Shown piece after piece: positions 7,162 to 13,133 of a DNA stretch of 64,000 nt. The translations under genes were made by a program, and so were the position numbers. The notes under the pieces were generated by a model, which made no database searches, had not been told where the DNA came from, and worked only from the letters and a program-made list of their open reading frames with translations. Position 1 is the stretch's first letter, and each line of letters begins with the position of its first letter. Source of the stretch: Candidatus Latescibacterota bacterium (GTDB lineage: Bacteria; Latescibacterota; UBA2968; UBA8231); assembly GCA_965203175.1 (NCBI GenBank), contig OZ241867.1:1216001-1280000 (forward strand), written 5' to 3'.

Positions 7162-8520
7162 CTAGGAACTCGCTTCCTCAGAGCTGACCTTCCGCTGGCC
7201 AGAGCGGCGCTGCTCGGCCTCTTTGATGTGAGGGCGAGTCTCTCCGGCTTCCTCCATGCGTCTCAAGAGTCGGTCTCGCATTACTTGGGCCACTTCTCGA
7301 TGCGACTCGTGGCCGACTAGGTTGTTCAGTTCGTAGGGGTCTGCCTGTATATCGTAGAGATACTGCTCTTCGTAGAGATCGGCTCCTGCTACATCTCTTC
7401 CTTGCCCATCTGGAACGTCCACCCCGTACTTCCACCGATGTGTGCGAACGGCCCGTCCCACTTGGGCTTCGCTAATCTGCACGAAAACCTCTTCGGGCCA
7501 ATCGGCTACTCCACCGCGCAAAAGCGGCATGAGCGAGCGGCCCTGCATCTGCTCGGGGATTTCCAAGCCGGCCGCATCCAAAAGCGTTGGCGGCAGGTCG
7601 ATCAAGCTAACCAACTCTTGCAATTGGCCGCCGCGAAAACCGGGGCCAGTCAAGACCGTCGGCACCCGGATCGAGCTCTCGTGACAAGAGCGTTTGTACT
7701 CGTTGTTGCGCGTCTTGAAGTGACAGCCGTGATCCGACGTAAAGAGCACGATGGTGTCGTCGGCTAGCTCCAAGCTCTTGAGCGCGTCGTGCAGGCGGCC
7801 ATAGGCTTCATCGAGCCGCTTGACCATCCCGTAATAGCCGCCTAAGTGCTGGTGAGTCGAGCCGCCTAAGGCCGCTAGATCGGGCGGGATCCAGCCTCCG
7901 GTATAGACCTCCCGGTAGCCATCGGGGGGTGGATAGTCGTCCAAGTGGTTCTGGTGATGGGGTTCAATGTAGGAGACGAAGAGAAAAAAGGGGTGATCTT
8001 GGTGCGCGTCCACGTAGCGGATTGCGGCATCCGTGACTGCATCCACGCGATAACCGGGTAGGCGGACGGGTTGTTCGTCATTGTCGTAGAGGACCGTGCT
8101 GTAGGCGTCGGAAGTAAACTCGAGAACATTCGACGCCAACCAGTACTGGTAGCCAAAGCGGTCCGCTGCCGGTACCGGACCGGTGGTCCCTCGCTCGTGT
8201 AGGTGCCACTTGCCTATATATCCAGTGTCGTAGCCAGCCGCGGCAAAGTAGTGGGCGAGGGTCTGGCTGTCTGCTGGTAGGGGAATGCCGTTGCGGTAAC
8301 AGCCTGTAGTCGTGGCATAGAAACCCGTTTGCAAGCAAGAGCGCGCCGGGCCGCAGACGGGTTGGCACGTAAAAGAGTGAGCCGCGTGGGTGTACTCGCG
8401 GGCCAAGCGATCGAGATTCGGCGTAAGGCCCAGCGGGTTGCCGTGTAGCCCTGTTGTGTCCCAGCGCTGTTGGTCTGTAAAAAAGACTATGACGTTTGGT
8501 TTTTTACTGTCTCCGGTCAT
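7162..8520 (-). CDS. Sulfatase (formylglycine-dependent, arylsulfatase A-like)
   Basis: PNVIVFFTDQQRWD, CGPAR (CxPxR), GKWHL, FTSDHG. Confidence 0.9.
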   Translation of the reverse strand: MTGDSKKPNVIVFFTDQQRWDTTGLHGNPLGLTPNLDRLAREYTHAAHSFTCQPVCGPARSCLQTGFYATTTGCYRNGIPLPADSQTLAHYFAAAGYDTGYIGKWHLHERGTTGPVPAADRFGYQYWLASNVLEFTSDAYSTVLYDNDEQPVRLPGYRVDAVTDAAIRYVDAHQDHPFFLFVSYIEPHHQNHLDDYPPPDGYREVYTGGWIPPDLAALGGSTHQHLGGYYGMVKRLDEAYGRLHDALKSLELADDTIVLFTSDHGCHFKTRNNEYKRSCHESSIRVPTVLTGPGFRGGQLQELVSLIDLPPTLLDAAGLEIPEQMQGRSLMPLLRGGVADWPEEVFVQISEAQVGRAVRTHRWKYGVDVPDGQGRDVAGADLYEEQYLYDIQADPYELNNLVGHESHREVAQVMRDRLLRRMEEAGETRPHIKEAEQRRSGQRKVSSEEASS

Positions 8521-8544: not shown

Positions 8545-9867
8545 CTATGGCTCAAGTGTCCGATTCGCTGCGCGCTGTAACTCCTCTACCACCTGTTCGA
8601 CGTCCCCGCCTTCAATCGCCTCTATCATCGCCTCTCGAATCAATCGCCGCACCCGTTCATACCCTGCCATCGTCGGCTCTGATTTTCCGTAGTCCAACAT
8701 GCCAAACGCCGCTCCATAGTGCGGGTTTTCCTCAAAGTAGCTTTCTAGCTCGCGCGCCGTACTTTTGCGCACCGGAAAGTAGTTGCTCGCCCGCACCCAT
8801 CGCGCTTGTTGTTCGGGGGCAGTAAACCACTTGAGAAAAAGCCACGCCGCCAGTTGTTTTTCAGGCGTACCGGAGCAGAGCGACACGCTGGCCCCGTACA
8901 CGTCAACAACCGGCCGCGATCCCGTCTGCGGCGGATGGGTCACTCCCCACTCGAAGGCCAGCCCAGAGTCCTCAATGCCGCTCTTGTAAAAGGGCAGGCC
9001 AGAGGAAGAATCCTGCGAGAAGAGGATCTGACCAGTAACGAACTCGTTTACCTCGACATCCCGTTCGCCGGCGATGTCCATCGCGCCGTCTCGCGCTAGT
9101 TCCTGCAACAATTCCAGTACCGCTTTAACTTCTGGCGAGTCCAGCGCATAGGCACTACCGGTCGAATCCACTAGAGCTCCGCCGCGACTGAAGACCATCG
9201 CCGCGAATCGGCTGGCGTCAACATCGAGCAAAAAACCCAAACTGCGCGCTGGGTTTTCGTTTTTGCTAAAGGGTTGGTCTTTGGCCAAGCGGCACATCGC
9301 AGCAAAGTCGTCCCACATCGCCGGTGGCTCGTCGTAGCCCAGCTCGCGCAACCAATCGACATTGTAGTAGAGCAGCTCCATTGAGCGATTCGGCGGGAAG
9401 CCAATCTGCACTCCGCCGAGATTGTCCTGCTCCAAAAATGCTTGGACGTAGTCGCTGCGCGCTGCGGGCGACAAGCCCCATTGGGGCGAATCCATATAGG
9501 GCGTTATATCCACTATGCCGTCGGCTTGGTAGTAGGCGAGGGCTTGGTTTTGGTAGGCTACGACCAAGCTCGCGGCCAGCGAACCGCTCTGGATACCCAC
9601 ATTCACCTTGTTGTAGATGTCCCCATAGCGCCCCATGTACTCGCCGCGCACCTCAATTCCATGGCCGTTGGTCTGGTTAAAGTCGGCAATCAGCTCTTGC
9701 AGGGCATCTTCGCGCTGGCCGGTGTGTTGATACCAAAAGACGATTTTCTGTCCTTGGGGATCAAGGGATTCGAGACTGGTCTGCTGCTCGTAAACGGCCT
9801 CTTGCTGGCCGCCACAAGCCCACAGCAACGTACACCAAACCAATGTAATCGCACATTTTGGTTTCAT
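8545..9867 (-). CDS. Carbohydrate ABC transporter substrate-binding lipoprotein (UgpB/MalE-like)
   Basis: True start MKPKCAIT at 9867; lipobox LWAC; LYYNVD, AAWLFLKWF, NYFPVRKS. Confidence 0.85.
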   Translation of the reverse strand: MKPKCAITLVWCTLLWACGGQQEAVYEQQTSLESLDPQGQKIVFWYQHTGQREDALQELIADFNQTNGHGIEVRGEYMGRYGDIYNKVNVGIQSGSLAASLVVAYQNQALAYYQADGIVDITPYMDSPQWGLSPAARSDYVQAFLEQDNLGGVQIGFPPNRSMELLYYNVDWLRELGYDEPPAMWDDFAAMCRLAKDQPFSKNENPARSLGFLLDVDASRFAAMVFSRGGALVDSTGSAYALDSPEVKAVLELLQELARDGAMDIAGERDVEVNEFVTGQILFSQDSSSGLPFYKSGIEDSGLAFEWGVTHPPQTGSRPVVDVYGASVSLCSGTPEKQLAAWLFLKWFTAPEQQARWVRASNYFPVRKSTARELESYFEENPHYGAAFGMLDYGKSEPTMAGYERVRRLIREAMIEAIEGGDVEQVVEELQRAANRTLEP

Positions 9868-11163
9868 CGAAAACCTCTTTAGGATACGGCCGTCTTTAGG
9901 CGGCCGAGGAATAAAGAGCGACCTGAGCGATGGGGCCTTGGGGCCCTGCGCGAAGGCCATAAAGGGCTTGACCCGGTTTCACGGAATGGATGCCTTTAGT
10001 ATGGTGAAGCGCATCATTCAAATCCAACTCCGGCCTACGCCCGAGCAAGCGGCGGCGCTTGAAAAGACGATGTGCCGCTTCCATCTGGCGTGTAATTGGG
10101 TGGCTCAGCGGGCCTTTGAGCGCAAGCTGGCCAACCGTTATGCCTTGCACAAGCTGTACTATTATGACGTGCGCCAGCGGTTTGACCTGCCCGCGCAAAT
10201 GGCCTGTCTGACCTTTGCCCAAGTGGCCGCGGCCTATCAGCGCGACAAGCGCAAAAAGGTGTCGTTTCGCCCGCTGGCGTCGATGCCCTACGACGCGCGT
10301 CTTTTGCATTACCGAGGATTGGACCGGGTGTCACTTTCGACGCTGGCCGGTCGCATCGTCGTGCCAATGGTTATGGGTGCCTACCAAGCCGAGCAGTTTG
10401 GCCACGTCAAGGGATATGCCGAGTTGGTGCGACGGCGCGATGGCAAGTGGTTTTTGATGGCCACCATCGAGTTCGATGACGTGCCCCCGGTTGAGCCCAA
10501 CGACTTCTTCGGCGTGGACCTCGGCGTGGCGAATTTGGCCACCGACTCGGATGGGGCATGCCATTCGGGAAAAGACGTAGAGCGCATCCGCGTAAAGTGT
10601 CAGACGCTCAAGCAGCAGCTTCAGTCGGCGGCTGATAAGGCCAAAAACCACCGTGCGCGCAAACGCATGCGTAAGAAACTGCACCGACGAGCGTGCAAAG
10701 AAGCCAACTTTCGCCGAAATACGAATCACGTCCTCTCCAAGCGTATCGTTGAGAAGGCTAAAGGCACTATCCGAGGTATTGCCCTCGAAGACCTCAAGGG
10801 CATCCGCGATAGACTCCTGTTTCGCAAGCCTCAACGATCCCGCATGGCTGGATGGGGCTTCAACCAACTCAGACAGTTTATCGCCTACAAGGCTCAACAG
10901 GCCGGGGTGAAACTGCTGTTGGTTGATCCCAAGCATACCAGTCAGATGTGCGCTCAGTGTGGCCATGTCCAGCGGGCGAATCGCTCCTGTCAAGCACAGT
11001 TTTGTTGTAAGCAGTGTAGGCATAACGCCCACGCCGATTACAACGCCGCCCGGAACATCCGGGCAAGGGCTCTCGTCAACGAGCCTATAGTTTCAGCCTA
11101 TGCCGCTGCGGCGGCCGGGTAAGGCTAGGGACAAGCCGCCTCCTTGAGGGGGCGGTAGTTGAC
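9868..11163 (+). mobile_element. IS200/IS605-family element, TnpB only (IS1341-like, no tnpA)
   Basis: Left-end hairpin CGGCCGTC-TTTA-GGCGGCCG (9887-9906) preceded by guide GATA. Right-end hairpin CCGCCTCC-TTGA-GGGGGCGG (11136-11155) preceded by CAAG and ending TGAC at 11163. Removal restores permease TAA-CGCG-ATG. Confidence 0.85.
10001..11122 (+). CDS. tnpB: RNA-guided endonuclease TnpB
   Basis: N-terminal LRPTPEQ; RuvC motifs GVDLG, ALEDL, HADYNAARNI all intact; Zn ribbon CAQC...CKQC. Start may be 9986 or 10001. Confidence 0.92.
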   Translation: MVKRIIQIQLRPTPEQAAALEKTMCRFHLACNWVAQRAFERKLANRYALHKLYYYDVRQRFDLPAQMACLTFAQVAAAYQRDKRKKVSFRPLASMPYDARLLHYRGLDRVSLSTLAGRIVVPMVMGAYQAEQFGHVKGYAELVRRRDGKWFLMATIEFDDVPPVEPNDFFGVDLGVANLATDSDGACHSGKDVERIRVKCQTLKQQLQSAADKAKNHRARKRMRKKLHRRACKEANFRRNTNHVLSKRIVEKAKGTIRGIALEDLKGIRDRLLFRKPQRSRMAGWGFNQLRQFIAYKAQQAGVKLLLVDPKHTSQMCAQCGHVQRANRSCQAQFCCKQCRHNAHADYNAARNIRARALVNEPIVSAYAAAAAG

Positions 11164-11180
11164 CGCGTTATCCTTTGAGC
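10980..11180 (+). ncRNA. Predicted TnpB omega/reRNA (scaffold to 11163, guide from 11164)
   Basis: Inferred from known TnpB biology: the RNA overlaps the tnpB 3' end and right end, and the guide is flanking DNA. The 5' boundary is a guess. Confidence 0.5.
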
Positions 11181-12004
11181 CCAGATATGGAAATGCCTTC
11201 GGTGAACTCCCGTTGGATGAGAAAATACGCCAAAAGTACGGGAGCGGTCGCAATGACGGCCCCGGCCATTTGCAGGTGAACCTCGGTCCCGGCCTCACTG
11301 GCAAACTGCTGCAATCCCACTGCGATCGGACGCCAATCCGGCGTATTGGTCACTAGTAAAGGCCAAGCCAATGCGTTCCAGGAACCAATAAACGTAAACA
11401 TGCCGACCGTCAAGAGCGGTGCCCGGCACAGGGGGACCGCGATCTGAAACAAAAAGCGCACATGGCCGGCCCCCTCAATCCGGGCCGCATCCCACAGCTC
11501 GTTGGGCAGGCCGCGCATAAACTGGCGCAAGAGAAAGATGCTAAAAGCACTAGCCATAAAGGGAATGGTCAAGGCCGGCCAGCTATTGAGCCAAGCAAAC
11601 GGCGTATTGCGGTGCAGCCACGTCACGACGAGAAAATTCGGCACGATGGTCACGGCCTCGGGAATCATCAGCGTAGCCAAGACGCCGGTAAATACCACAT
11701 CGCGTCCGCGAAACTGCATGCGCGCGAGCGGATAGGCCGCCATCACCGAAAACAACAGGGTCCCGCCGACTTGTAGGACGGCGATGATCAGCGAATTCTC
11801 AAAGTAGAGACCAAAATCCGCCTCTTGCCACGCTTCGATGTAATTGTCCCATTGTACGCGCTCGGGCAGCAAGACCCGCCGCAGCGATTCGCCGCGGCTC
11901 ATAAAAGAAGCCAACAGCATCCACGCGAACGGAAAGCCCGCAGCCAGCCCCCCCAAGCTCAAGCCGCAGTAAATCAGCCTAGCTTTGCCGCCCCTAGTCG
12001 CCAT
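11168..12004 (-). CDS. Carbohydrate ABC transporter permease (MalG/UgpE-like)
   Basis: EAA motif LPNELWDAARIEGA; multiple TM segments. Confidence 0.9.
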   Translation of the reverse strand: MATRGGKARLIYCGLSLGGLAAGFPFAWMLLASFMSRGESLRRVLLPERVQWDNYIEAWQEADFGLYFENSLIIAVLQVGGTLLFSVMAAYPLARMQFRGRDVVFTGVLATLMIPEAVTIVPNFLVVTWLHRNTPFAWLNSWPALTIPFMASAFSIFLLRQFMRGLPNELWDAARIEGAGHVRFLFQIAVPLCRAPLLTVGMFTFIGSWNALAWPLLVTNTPDWRPIAVGLQQFASEAGTEVHLQMAGAVIATAPVLLAYFLIQREFTEGISISGLKG

Positions 12005-13133
12005 AAAACACCCGCCTGCCGAGCACCCGGTTTTGCAGCAGCGTCAACGCCAAAATCGCGATGAAGAGCACAAAGGCCATCGCCGAGGCATAGCCGGCGT
12101 TGTGGTACTCAAAAATTTGGTCGAAAATGGCAATACTGAGCACGTCGACCGAGTCGCGGGCACCGGGCGTCCGCAGGATATACACGTGATTAAAAGCTTT
12201 GAAGGTCCCAATGACGGCTACCATCGATAAAAAGAACAGGGTTGGCGACACCAAGGGCAGGGTAACGTGGCGGAAGACTTGCCACTCGCCGGCGCCGTCC
12301 ATCTCCGCGGCCTCGTAGTATTGCTTGGGGATCGCACTGAGGCCAGCCAGTAAAATCACCGTATCGTAGCCGACGTAGACCCAAATGTTGTAGAGGATAA
12401 TCGAGGTCAGAGCCAAGCTCGGGAAGACGCTGTCCACCCACGCGGGGTGCGAAGCAAAACCGGCTCCTTCTAGTAACAGGGCGACGACGGACTTGCTCTC
12501 GTAGAGCCAGCGCTGATTCTCCAGCCCCCAAAAGCTCCAAAAGCGGTTGGCCAACGAGGAGGGGTGCGGGCTAAAGATAGTGCGAAAAACCACGGCTGAG
12601 GCGATAATCGGCGTGACATACGGTAGAAAAAACAGCGTGCGAAACGCGCCTCTGGCCCGCGTGATCTTGAAGAGCAAATACGCCAGTCCAGTGGCCAAGC
12701 CCAGTTGGAACGGGATCGTCCCAACCGCGTAGAAAAATGTGACCTTGAAGCCGTTGTACAGCGCTGGATCACCCGTCTCGACTAGGCCACCCAACCCCCG
12801 AGCCAATCCCACCCAAAGTCCCAACAGTGCGACCGCGCCCCAAGCAATGCGGACATAAAGGGGACGCAGACCGCGCTTGACTAACGAGGCGCGCAGGCGA
12901 TAGGCCGCCCAAACGAGACCGATTCCGGCGACAAAGGGCAACAGATACTGCGGGTCCCCCAAGGCGCGGACATAGTGGTCTAATCCAACCACCGCTTCCT
13001 TTTTGATCCGCCACCTGTGTAGGCTGACGTACAGGGCATAGCCAATAGGGAAGAGTCCAAACGCGCCCAGCACGACAAGTGCCGGCGCGAGGAGGCCCCA
13101 AGCAAGCTGTTGTTCTCTGCTGCGGGTACTCAT
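11994..13133 (-). CDS. Carbohydrate ABC transporter permease (MalF/UgpA-like)
   Basis: EAA motif IPKQYYEAAEMDGA; GYASAMA. Confidence 0.9.
   Translation of the reverse strand: MSTRSREQQLAWGLLAPALVVLGAFGLFPIGYALYVSLHRWRIKKEAVVGLDHYVRALGDPQYLLPFVAGIGLVWAAYRLRASLVKRGLRPLYVRIAWGAVALLGLWVGLARGLGGLVETGDPALYNGFKVTFFYAVGTIPFQLGLATGLAYLLFKITRARGAFRTLFFLPYVTPIIASAVVFRTIFSPHPSSLANRFWSFWGLENQRWLYESKSVVALLLEGAGFASHPAWVDSVFPSLALTSIILYNIWVYVGYDTVILLAGLSAIPKQYYEAAEMDGAGEWQVFRHVTLPLVSPTLFFLSMVAVIGTFKAFNHVYILRTPGARDSVDVLSIAIFDQIFEYHNAGYASAMAFVLFIAILALTLLQNRVLGRRVFYGD

Follow-up and report, generated by a model that had tools for sequence, protein, structure and literature searches.

The locus described here raises the question of how a host gene can tolerate a transposon inserted directly between its start codon and its native ribosome-binding site (RBS). 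The window (the whole stretch of DNA that was analysed, 64,000 nucleotides of Candidatus Latescibacterota bacterium, GenBank assembly GCA_965203175.1, contig OZ241867.1, positions 1,216,001 to 1,280,000) carries, at 9868-11163 on the + strand, a TnpB-only element of the IS200/IS605 family that is 1,296 bp long. Its neighbours are the stop codon of an ABC permease gene on one side and the ATG of a substrate-binding protein (SBP) lipoprotein gene on the other, and it now parts the SBP gene from its native Shine-Dalgarno (SD) sequence. Few mobile genes are as common as IS200/IS605 and TnpB elements, and how they limit the harm done to their hosts is an active question, with IStrons as the known example. 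The answer that we regard as probable for this element is docking at the tetranucleotide YCAT, where insertions at start codons are kept cheap by a left end that reads outward as an SD-like sequence. The source genome (labelled G000) is a single contig of 6.58 Mb with 59% G+C and a canonical 16S tail (...GGATCACCTCCTTTCT); numbers with the prefixes L, o, n and A are labels for copies or left-end loci, and the window copy is c1.

The boundaries of the element are fixed by comparison of copies and by empty sites. Five further full-length copies (71-74% DNA identity) and three end fragments are present in G000; homology among the six full-length copies stops at ...GTTGAC| in all six right ends, while the left flank ends in CAT in five of the six. 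An orthologue of the SBP gene was found in 18/18 genus genomes of the first draw, at 74-93% identity, and in other genomes of the genus 11 of 11 orthologous loci show the 3' end of the permease gene directly against the SBP ATG with nothing between, the empty junctions reading ...AAAGGATAACGCG|ATGAAAC... with small variants. The first-pass annotation, which was made from the sequence alone, had predicted precisely this junction (AAAGGATAACGCG|ATG), and it was encountered as stated at all of these related loci. With the ATG kept in 11/11 empty alleles, the CAT can be assigned to the host and a target duplication excluded, so that the element spans exactly 9868-11163. The empty form occurs in nature, as contigs of one DNA metagenome (X3) and two metatranscriptomes (X21, X22), from relatives 88-95% alike, join across the element.

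Subterminal hairpins at both ends, without terminal inverted repeats, place the element in the IS200/IS605 family, and the hairpins, guides and tetranucleotides all lie where the first-pass annotation had put them. At the left end, the cleavage and target tetranucleotide TCAT (9864-9867) belongs to the host and, read on the opposite strand, is the ATGA with which the SBP gene opens. The 19 nt from the cleavage point to the hairpin foot (9868-9886; minus strand CCTAAAGAGGTTTTCG, then the host ATG) contain the left guide GATA at 9883-9886, 16 nt into the element, and are followed by a hairpin of 8 bp, including one G.T, with the loop TTTA (9887-9894/9899-9906). The right end (11132-11163) consists of the guide CAAG (11132-11135), a hairpin (11136-11143/11148-11155) and the cleavage site TGAC (11160-11163); the pattern ...AGGGACAAGC-hairpin-GGTTGAC| is kept across copies and its stems covary. 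Between these ends lies tnpB (10001-11122, + strand), which encodes 373 aa from the ATG at 10001, other copies aligning to the GTG at 10004. The protein matches Pfam OrfB_IS605 (PF01385) and Cas12f1-like_TNB (PF07282) above the cut-offs, and its alignment to Cas12f 9nzq sets GVDLG, ALEDL and HADYNAA opposite GVDMG, MEDL and NADFNAS; judged by these motifs, the RuvC D-E-D triad and the zinc ribbon are intact. No tnpA was found inside 9868-11163. Two Y1_Tnp genes (128 and 126 bits) are located elsewhere in G000, and the elements that bear them begin CCAT|AAAAAATCACCG... and CCAT|AAAGAAACTC... with the same type of hairpin as the window element, which is thus a non-autonomous IS200/IS605 member carrying tnpB alone (IS1341-type).

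The wider family was surveyed by its left end. A covariance model (R1), built without the flank bases, was searched against 31 genus genomes and matched 24 of them, giving 95 left ends at 90 distinct sites; TnpB copies with no recognisable left end (L028, L031, L040) and partial model matches (about 20 rows within the genus and one in the search outside it) were excluded from the counts. Within the genus, 30 rows are TnpB relatives of at least 57% identity. The group is defined by its left end and not by its TnpB, because the same left end occurs on the two tnpA elements and with at least three TnpB clades. The junction reads CAT at 80 of the 90 distinct sites, position -4 being T in 48 and C in 32 of them, while neither A nor G occurs there, and the ten exceptions (CCCT, TTAT, CTAT, CCAC and others) are mostly one change from YCAT. 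Position -4 and the third base ahead of the hairpin covary: T is found with A in 49/49 cases and C with G in 31/35. This covariation of guide and flank is target recognition of the IS608 type. The proposal of an IS608-type TnpB element with the predicted ends is borne out. The tetranucleotide guide rule by which those ends had been predicted is loosely right, although the data show one covarying Watson-Crick pair, namely that between -4 and the third base before the hairpin. The window copy has the guide GATA, and its nearest relative (L024) has the commoner GAGA. The target had been taken to be ATGA(A) on the opposite strand; its complementarity to a start codon stands, while the actual target is YCAT (ATGR), as discussed below for the T at -5. 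Outside the genus, 14 left ends were recovered from 10 of 11 other genomes of the phylum with a match, of which 10 read YCAT at 9 distinct sites. At six of these nine, open reading frames (ORFs) of 82-306 codons run from the junction ATG, and they include DksA-like and class IV aminotransferase-like proteins (recognised by eye from N-terminal letters only).

The complement of YCAT contains a start codon, and the sites in use are start codons far more often than YCAT availability would give. Of the 80 YCAT sites, 51 have an antisense ORF of 100 codons or more that begins with the junction ATG, whereas 26.9% of the 87,592 YCAT sites of G000 pass the same ORF test (binomial p = 6e-12); left flanks thus coincide with antisense start codons well beyond the frequency of the tetranucleotide. 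Many of the junction ORFs begin with signal peptides or known N-termini, and Pfam domains start at residues 2-35 in ORFs for hisD (histidinol dehydrogenase), class I/II aminotransferase, amidohydrolase, PhyH, HlyD and UVR; a HicA toxin gene likewise begins at a junction ATG. For most insertions found in other genomes the empty orthologous site is present in G000, and these sites carry the ATG in 45 of 49 rows, with native SDs such as GGAGG and AAGGAG upstream, and in 22 long-ORF cases the orthologous ATG of G000 is the first in-frame start after a stop. The working tally comprises 52 start-codon sites and 28 others among the 80, where o6, at an internal Met of a DNA methylase, was placed among the non-starts and six short or decayed cases were taken as starts on weaker grounds (L080, L114, n4, o2, L029, L093). 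Insertion immediately upstream of starts, which had been proposed for the group as a whole, therefore describes about two thirds of the sites, and about a third are not start codons.

The excess persists under stricter nulls. These were drawn from a crude gene map (4,924 genes, 89.7% coding), the rough start calls of which are the main weakness of the comparison, and which assigns 1,937 YCAT sites to predicted starts, 9,857 to intergenic and 75,798 to intragenic positions. If all intragenic insertions are taken to have been purged, the expected share of starts is about 16%, against an observed 50/80 (p = 3e-20); if about 3,000 genes are assumed to have an ATGR start, the expected share rises to about 23% (p = 9e-14 for the same 50/80); and even with a site at each of about 5,500 genes the share would be at most 36% (50/80, p = 1e-6). 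The start-codon excess exceeds simple YCAT availability.

Several candidate causes of this excess were tried. An extended left-flank motif was rejected, since the non-start sites carry no bias beyond -4: T at -5 is present at 30/52 start-codon sites against 8/28 non-start sites, and being confined to start sites it reflects second-codon usage and not recognition. The accessibility of single-stranded DNA, predicted in 84-nt windows, finds no support as a cause, the unpaired probability of YCAT being 0.55 at crude starts, 0.56 at intergenic and 0.59 at intragenic positions, and 0.50 at 34 observed start sites. A second guide reading the right flank was rejected as it stands, with a similarity to the own flank of 6.23/16 positions against 6.03 in cross comparisons (permutation p = 0.11); in engineered IS608 the extended pairing that has been published involves the opposite flank. 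Nor is a preference for 5' untranslated regions as a whole supported, as a gene start lies 1-150 nt beyond the junction at 6/28 non-start sites against 31.8% of 1,500 random intergenic sites; the excess therefore sits at the codon itself and not in 5' regions. Either insertion is biased by something that these tests do not see, or ATG-docked copies persist better than ordinary intergenic ones.

A possible reason for better persistence may lie in the left end itself. Read outward, the minus strand of 9868-9886 forms an SD-like motif and a U-rich spacer, with a duplex energy with the 16S tail of -7.0 kcal/mol (AAAGAGGTTTTCG|ATG in the window copy), and other left ends read ACGGGAGGTATTT|ATG, CCAGGAGGTTTTT|ATG, AAAGGAGATTTTT|ATG and GCGAGGTTTTT|ATG. 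The SD-like core ends 5-7 nt before the host ATG in most left ends, as the first-pass annotation had supposed. Its literal form (CCTCTTT, outward AGAGG), which had been expected to be conserved, is not: a purine-rich core of the GGAG/GAGG type is common, and several subfamilies have none (GCCGAAA in L027, L029, L030 and L046; also L043 and L111). Left ends form predicted duplexes with the 16S tail of -6.96 kcal/mol on average; the corresponding means are -6.26 kcal/mol in crude gene starts and -4.37 kcal/mol in random ATGR contexts, and values of -6 kcal/mol or below are reached by 65%, 53% and 26% of these three sets, respectively. The ORFs beside occupied sites match the length of the empty-site orthologue in most rows. 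At one start codon the same left end is common to three species-level genomes, and the downstream gene of 325 codons, with a ratio of nonsynonymous to synonymous divergence (dN/dS) of 0.10-0.14 at dS 0.18-0.24, is under purifying selection.

The same stretch takes part in a second structure. Besides the 8-bp hairpin, element positions 8-14 pair with a segment 3' of it; in the window copy this helix, P1, joins CTCTTTA (9875-9881) to TAAAGAG (9912-9918) and encloses the guide and the left hairpin (9875-9918). In alignment A1, 78.4% of the cells are paired against 64.5% in shuffles, the observed value is reached in 0/500 shuffles, and changes on both sides are seen in 7/7 P1 pairs; in the larger, model-fitted alignment A2 the figures are 78.7% and 62.1%, with slid controls at 33-53%. 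The pairing of the SD with 9912-9918, first noticed in the window copy, is thus a conserved, covarying helix. The counts of G.T and A.C (32 vs 23) do not single out either strand as the one for which the left-end structure is made. In ten left ends (L034, L038, L088, L091, L103, L109, L117-L120) the hairpin loop TTTA is replaced by a conserved insert, bridged by the covariance model, which is mostly about 30 nt long (...GCGGCCACAATACTGTGGCCGGACTGCTAG...) and itself a small hairpin, L038 and L088 carrying a different one.

The mechanism that we favour as probable would then run as follows. The window element would be moved in trans by a Y1 TnpA from elsewhere in the genome, its top strand being cut and joined, as in IS608, 3' of a tetranucleotide base-paired with the guide just 5' of the left hairpin. 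The tetranucleotide in this lineage being YCAT, the complement of ATG and a following purine, insertions would land, or survive, directly 5' of an opposite-strand start codon at about two thirds of independent sites. The native SD would be displaced by 1.3 kb, and the first 19 nt of the element, read outward, would bring an SD-like core rich in purines to a position 5-7 nt ahead of the host ATG, followed by a U-rich spacer. By means of this core, transcripts reading through the element might still be translatable, and the cost of insertion would stay low enough for start-codon copies to persist. Of this account, the element ends, the empty site, the target YCAT, the covariation of guide and flank, the start-codon excess, the SD-like sequence and the purifying selection on one downstream gene are observed, while movement by TnpA in trans, transcription through the element and RBS activity of the outward left end are inferred.

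A number of observations weigh against this account. The SD strength is alike at start and non-start copies (-6.94 vs -7.00 kcal/mol), and the SD-like core is not universal, the GCCGAAA, GCTGA and GCAGT subfamilies scoring -0.5 to -2.6 kcal/mol; the SD-less L030 and L046 sit at real starts, and outside the genus the start-codon-adjacent L125, L126, L134 and L135 are without an SD (by eye). Two start-codon insertions stand beside decayed genes, with 18 codons against 94 (L029) and 13 against 122 (L093) in the G000 orthologue with the same ATG. The SD-like stretch may be conserved for recognition by TnpA rather than for translation, because it is one strand of the covarying helix P1. In the predicted fold of the antisense RNA of the window copy both the SD and the AUG are paired (minimum free energy, MFE, -38.5 kcal/mol, z = -2.7), which would oppose initiation. 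The left end shared by three genomes has no tnpB within 3 kb in one of them (G013), so that this case tests the left end and not the whole element. RNA contigs on the window (runs X1, X3, X21, X22; contigs only) cover only the empty form of relatives, and those over the element, in a few low-depth bins and across neither junction, are uninformative on the occupied state. Finally, a bias in orientation towards the lagging-strand template is expected for IS200/IS605 elements from work on IS608 and ISDra2, and no such bias is seen among the 16 left ends of G000, of which 7 fit (GC-skew origin at about 2.0 Mb and terminus at about 4.5 Mb, the origin assignment being uncertain).

Among the alternatives, target chemistry combined with purifying selection survives best, as a tentative possibility: any accessible YCAT would be hit, intragenic copies would be purged, copies at start codons would survive through the tolerance of this organism, and the SD-like look would be a by-product of the pyrimidine-rich 5' strand of P1, neither an adaptation nor necessarily a working RBS. 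On this account the SD-like stretch belongs to a covarying helix needed by TnpA, which agrees with the equal SD strength at start and non-start copies and with the start copies that have no SD; the non-start sites show no target beyond 4 nt, and the left end has no element-specific match to the right flank (6.23 vs 6.03 of 16, p = 0.11). The difficulty lies in the numbers, for non-disrupting intergenic YCAT sites exceed start sites by about 2:1 to 5:1 (9,857, set beside 1,937 on the crude map or some 5,500 at the upper limit), whereas the observed starts are 52 against 28, and non-start sites lie 1-150 nt upstream of a gene in 6/28 cases against 31.8% for random intergenic sites. Selection by itself would need intergenic insertions to be several-fold more harmful than those that sever a gene from its SD, which is difficult to picture if the left end does not take the place of the SD.

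Doubtful, but of a different kind, is the proposal that the left end recognises the architecture of SD, spacer and ATG as such. This would be a start-codon-specific transposon that installs a structured, possibly switchable RBS, its SD locked within P1, and can be reversed by precise excision; recognition might proceed, for example, by a start of the element (spacer and CCTCC) that mimics the strand it replaces, or by a single-stranded circle tethered to nascent SD sequences. A mobile expression cassette or switch selected by the host, in which an SD within P1, an outward promoter or reversible precise excision gives the gene a new control, is unlikely. The predicted pairing of SD and AUG in the antisense fold of c1 (MFE -38.5 kcal/mol, z = -2.7), the conservation of P1, the start-codon excess beyond simple availability and the one site that holds two different elements in two genomes would all suit such a switch. 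Against it, no sigma-70-like promoter was found on either strand of 9700-11400 (0.9 expected in shuffles), the G.T and A.C counts (32 vs 23) do not tell apart the strand that the structure serves, and the genes concerned, housekeeping and accessory, are unrelated and without a common theme. That the element donates the start codon (the CAT being its own and the ORFs captured or artefactual), or that the window case is a one-off coincidence, can be dismissed as extremely improbable, for although CAT is common to nearly all copies and copy comparison alone cannot assign its side, donation is refuted by the ATG kept in 11/11 empty window loci and 45/49 orthologous sites of G000, and coincidence is opposed by the 80/90 sites that share the pattern.

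The genes around the window copy read on the minus strand. The SBP gene (SBP_bac_8 in Pfam; 8545-9867) begins MKPKCAITLVWCTLLWACGG with a lipoprotein-type signal, and its native SD and spacer now form the right flank of the element (11164-11183; minus strand AAAGGATAACGCG, from the empty alleles), which, from published TnpB biology, is also the expected guide portion of the omega RNA of the element, an RNA that would be encoded by the 3' end of tnpB together with the right end. The permease gene at 11168-12004 had supplied this SD region through its last codons and stop (AAA GGA TAA); a further ABC permease gene lies at 11994-13133, and a sulfatase gene at 7162-8520. A mechanical ORF listing runs the SBP frame 31 codons into the element (8545-9960, minus strand, 471 aa from the ATG at 9960), and gene callers probably mis-start (extend or miss) the genes that adjoin such insertions. 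As regards other signals, an Rfam scan of 9000-12000 returned only HEARO, at 19 bits against a cut-off of 83 bits and on the wrong strand, and no group I intron family, while a scan of 9700-11400 gave no sigma-70-like promoter on either strand (0.9 in shuffles) and four weak terminator-like sites (1.7 in shuffles). Upstream of tnpB in o6, L033, L045 and others, TTGACA-17 nt-TATATT stands about 7 nt before the GTG or ATG, a spacing which suggests leaderless or near-leaderless tnpB mRNA in several copies; in the window copy (9968-10006) the -10 position reads TGCCTT, a poor match.

Some features of individual loci are recorded here. One chromosomal position, its left and right flanks common to both genomes, is occupied in G000 by a tnpA+tnpB element (L011 1327-3040, G000:C1 at about 330.6-332.3 kb) and in G006 by a tnpB-only element of another clade (L045, G006:C239 at about 52.3-53.6 kb). 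Of the two flanks, one reads CCCAT and the other CCTAT, and either the site was used repeatedly or element interiors were exchanged. Nine left- or right-end matches (o3, A011, n5, n3, o6, n2, n1, a fragment resembling a right end, and o4; loci L003, L004, L006, L007, L009 and L011) fall within 85 kb of G000:C1 (about 316-401 kb), possibly a hot spot or island of this group of transposons. Enolase-superfamily genes that run in the same direction end at the copies of L043 and L004 (o4). The copy o4 is flanked by CCCT, which differs from CCAT at one position, and in L043 the T of CAT and the AG of the element create a new TAG stop, with about three codons trimmed relative to the G000 orthologue. 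At four non-start sites (L038, L068, L102, L108) a stop comes just one codon after the junction ATG, and L033 has an ORF of 4 codons, natively preceded by AAAGAGGAAATAGA; these short frames may be chance occurrences, decayed genes or leader mini-ORFs. Beside the shared left-end remnant in G013 (L136, about 240-540) there is a small minus-strand ORF (MNKIDRNKYPEGWNQERV...), antitoxin-like by eye, and a 15-nt probe of the right flank had no match in L136.

The closest known system is IS608 of Helicobacter pylori, which resembles the window family in its subterminal hairpins, the lack of inverted repeats and insertion 3' of a tetranucleotide without duplication. In IS608 the cleavage site is located 19 nt 5' of the left hairpin, whose foot carries the guide that reads it (He et al., 2011; PMC3201880), and the window family shares both this distance and the covariation of guide and flank. 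The two differ in the target (YCAT here, TTAC there), in the absence of tnpA from the window element and in the additional covarying helix P1; neither an association with start codons nor an outward SD-like end is described for IS608 in the parts covered of He et al. (2011) and Morero et al. (2018). A YCAT-type target is not new in itself, because, of the Geobacillus stearothermophilus elements ISGst5 and ISGst2, the former has a flanking target and target-adjacent motif that is given as TTCAT in the consulted part of Meers et al. (10.1101/2023.03.14.532601). ISGst5 carries IscB whereas the window element carries TnpB, and that part mentions neither start-codon adjacency nor an outward RBS for it.

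Other TnpB-related systems bear on the same problem from different sides. IStrons (IS605 or IS607 elements with a group I intron) are, like the window family, TnpB-bearing transposons that lower the cost to the interrupted gene; an IStron restores the mRNA by splicing, whereas in the window element no intron was found and the proposed relief would come from docking at the ATG and a substitute SD. The nearest precedent for a more specific IS200/IS605 target is engineered IS608 (Morero et al., 2018; PMC5934647), where left-end DNA 3' of the hairpin lengthens target recognition and the secondary structure of the left end sets limits. There the pairing is with target bases 5' of the tetranucleotide, while in the window family the non-start sites show no conservation beyond -4 and the right flank shows no covariation. 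The TldR proteins (nuclease-dead, TnpB-derived repressors) likewise place a TnpB homologue at the 5' end of a host gene; a domesticated regulator of this type is ruled out here by the intact RuvC motifs, the presence of both ends and the empty alleles. A literature search, outside which supplementary insertion-site tables fell, found no report of start-codon-adjacent IS200/IS605 insertion or of an outward RBS.

For the biology of the family, the lineage points to a different solution to the problem of limiting cost, in which a target of 4 nt complementary to the start codon is combined with an outward end that resembles an RBS. It would be this combination that allows 1.3 kb of DNA to lodge between a gene and the SD native to it. 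The lineage would further provide a natural example of context-specific IS200/IS605 insertion, which bears on making such transposons, or TnpB nucleases, more site-specific.

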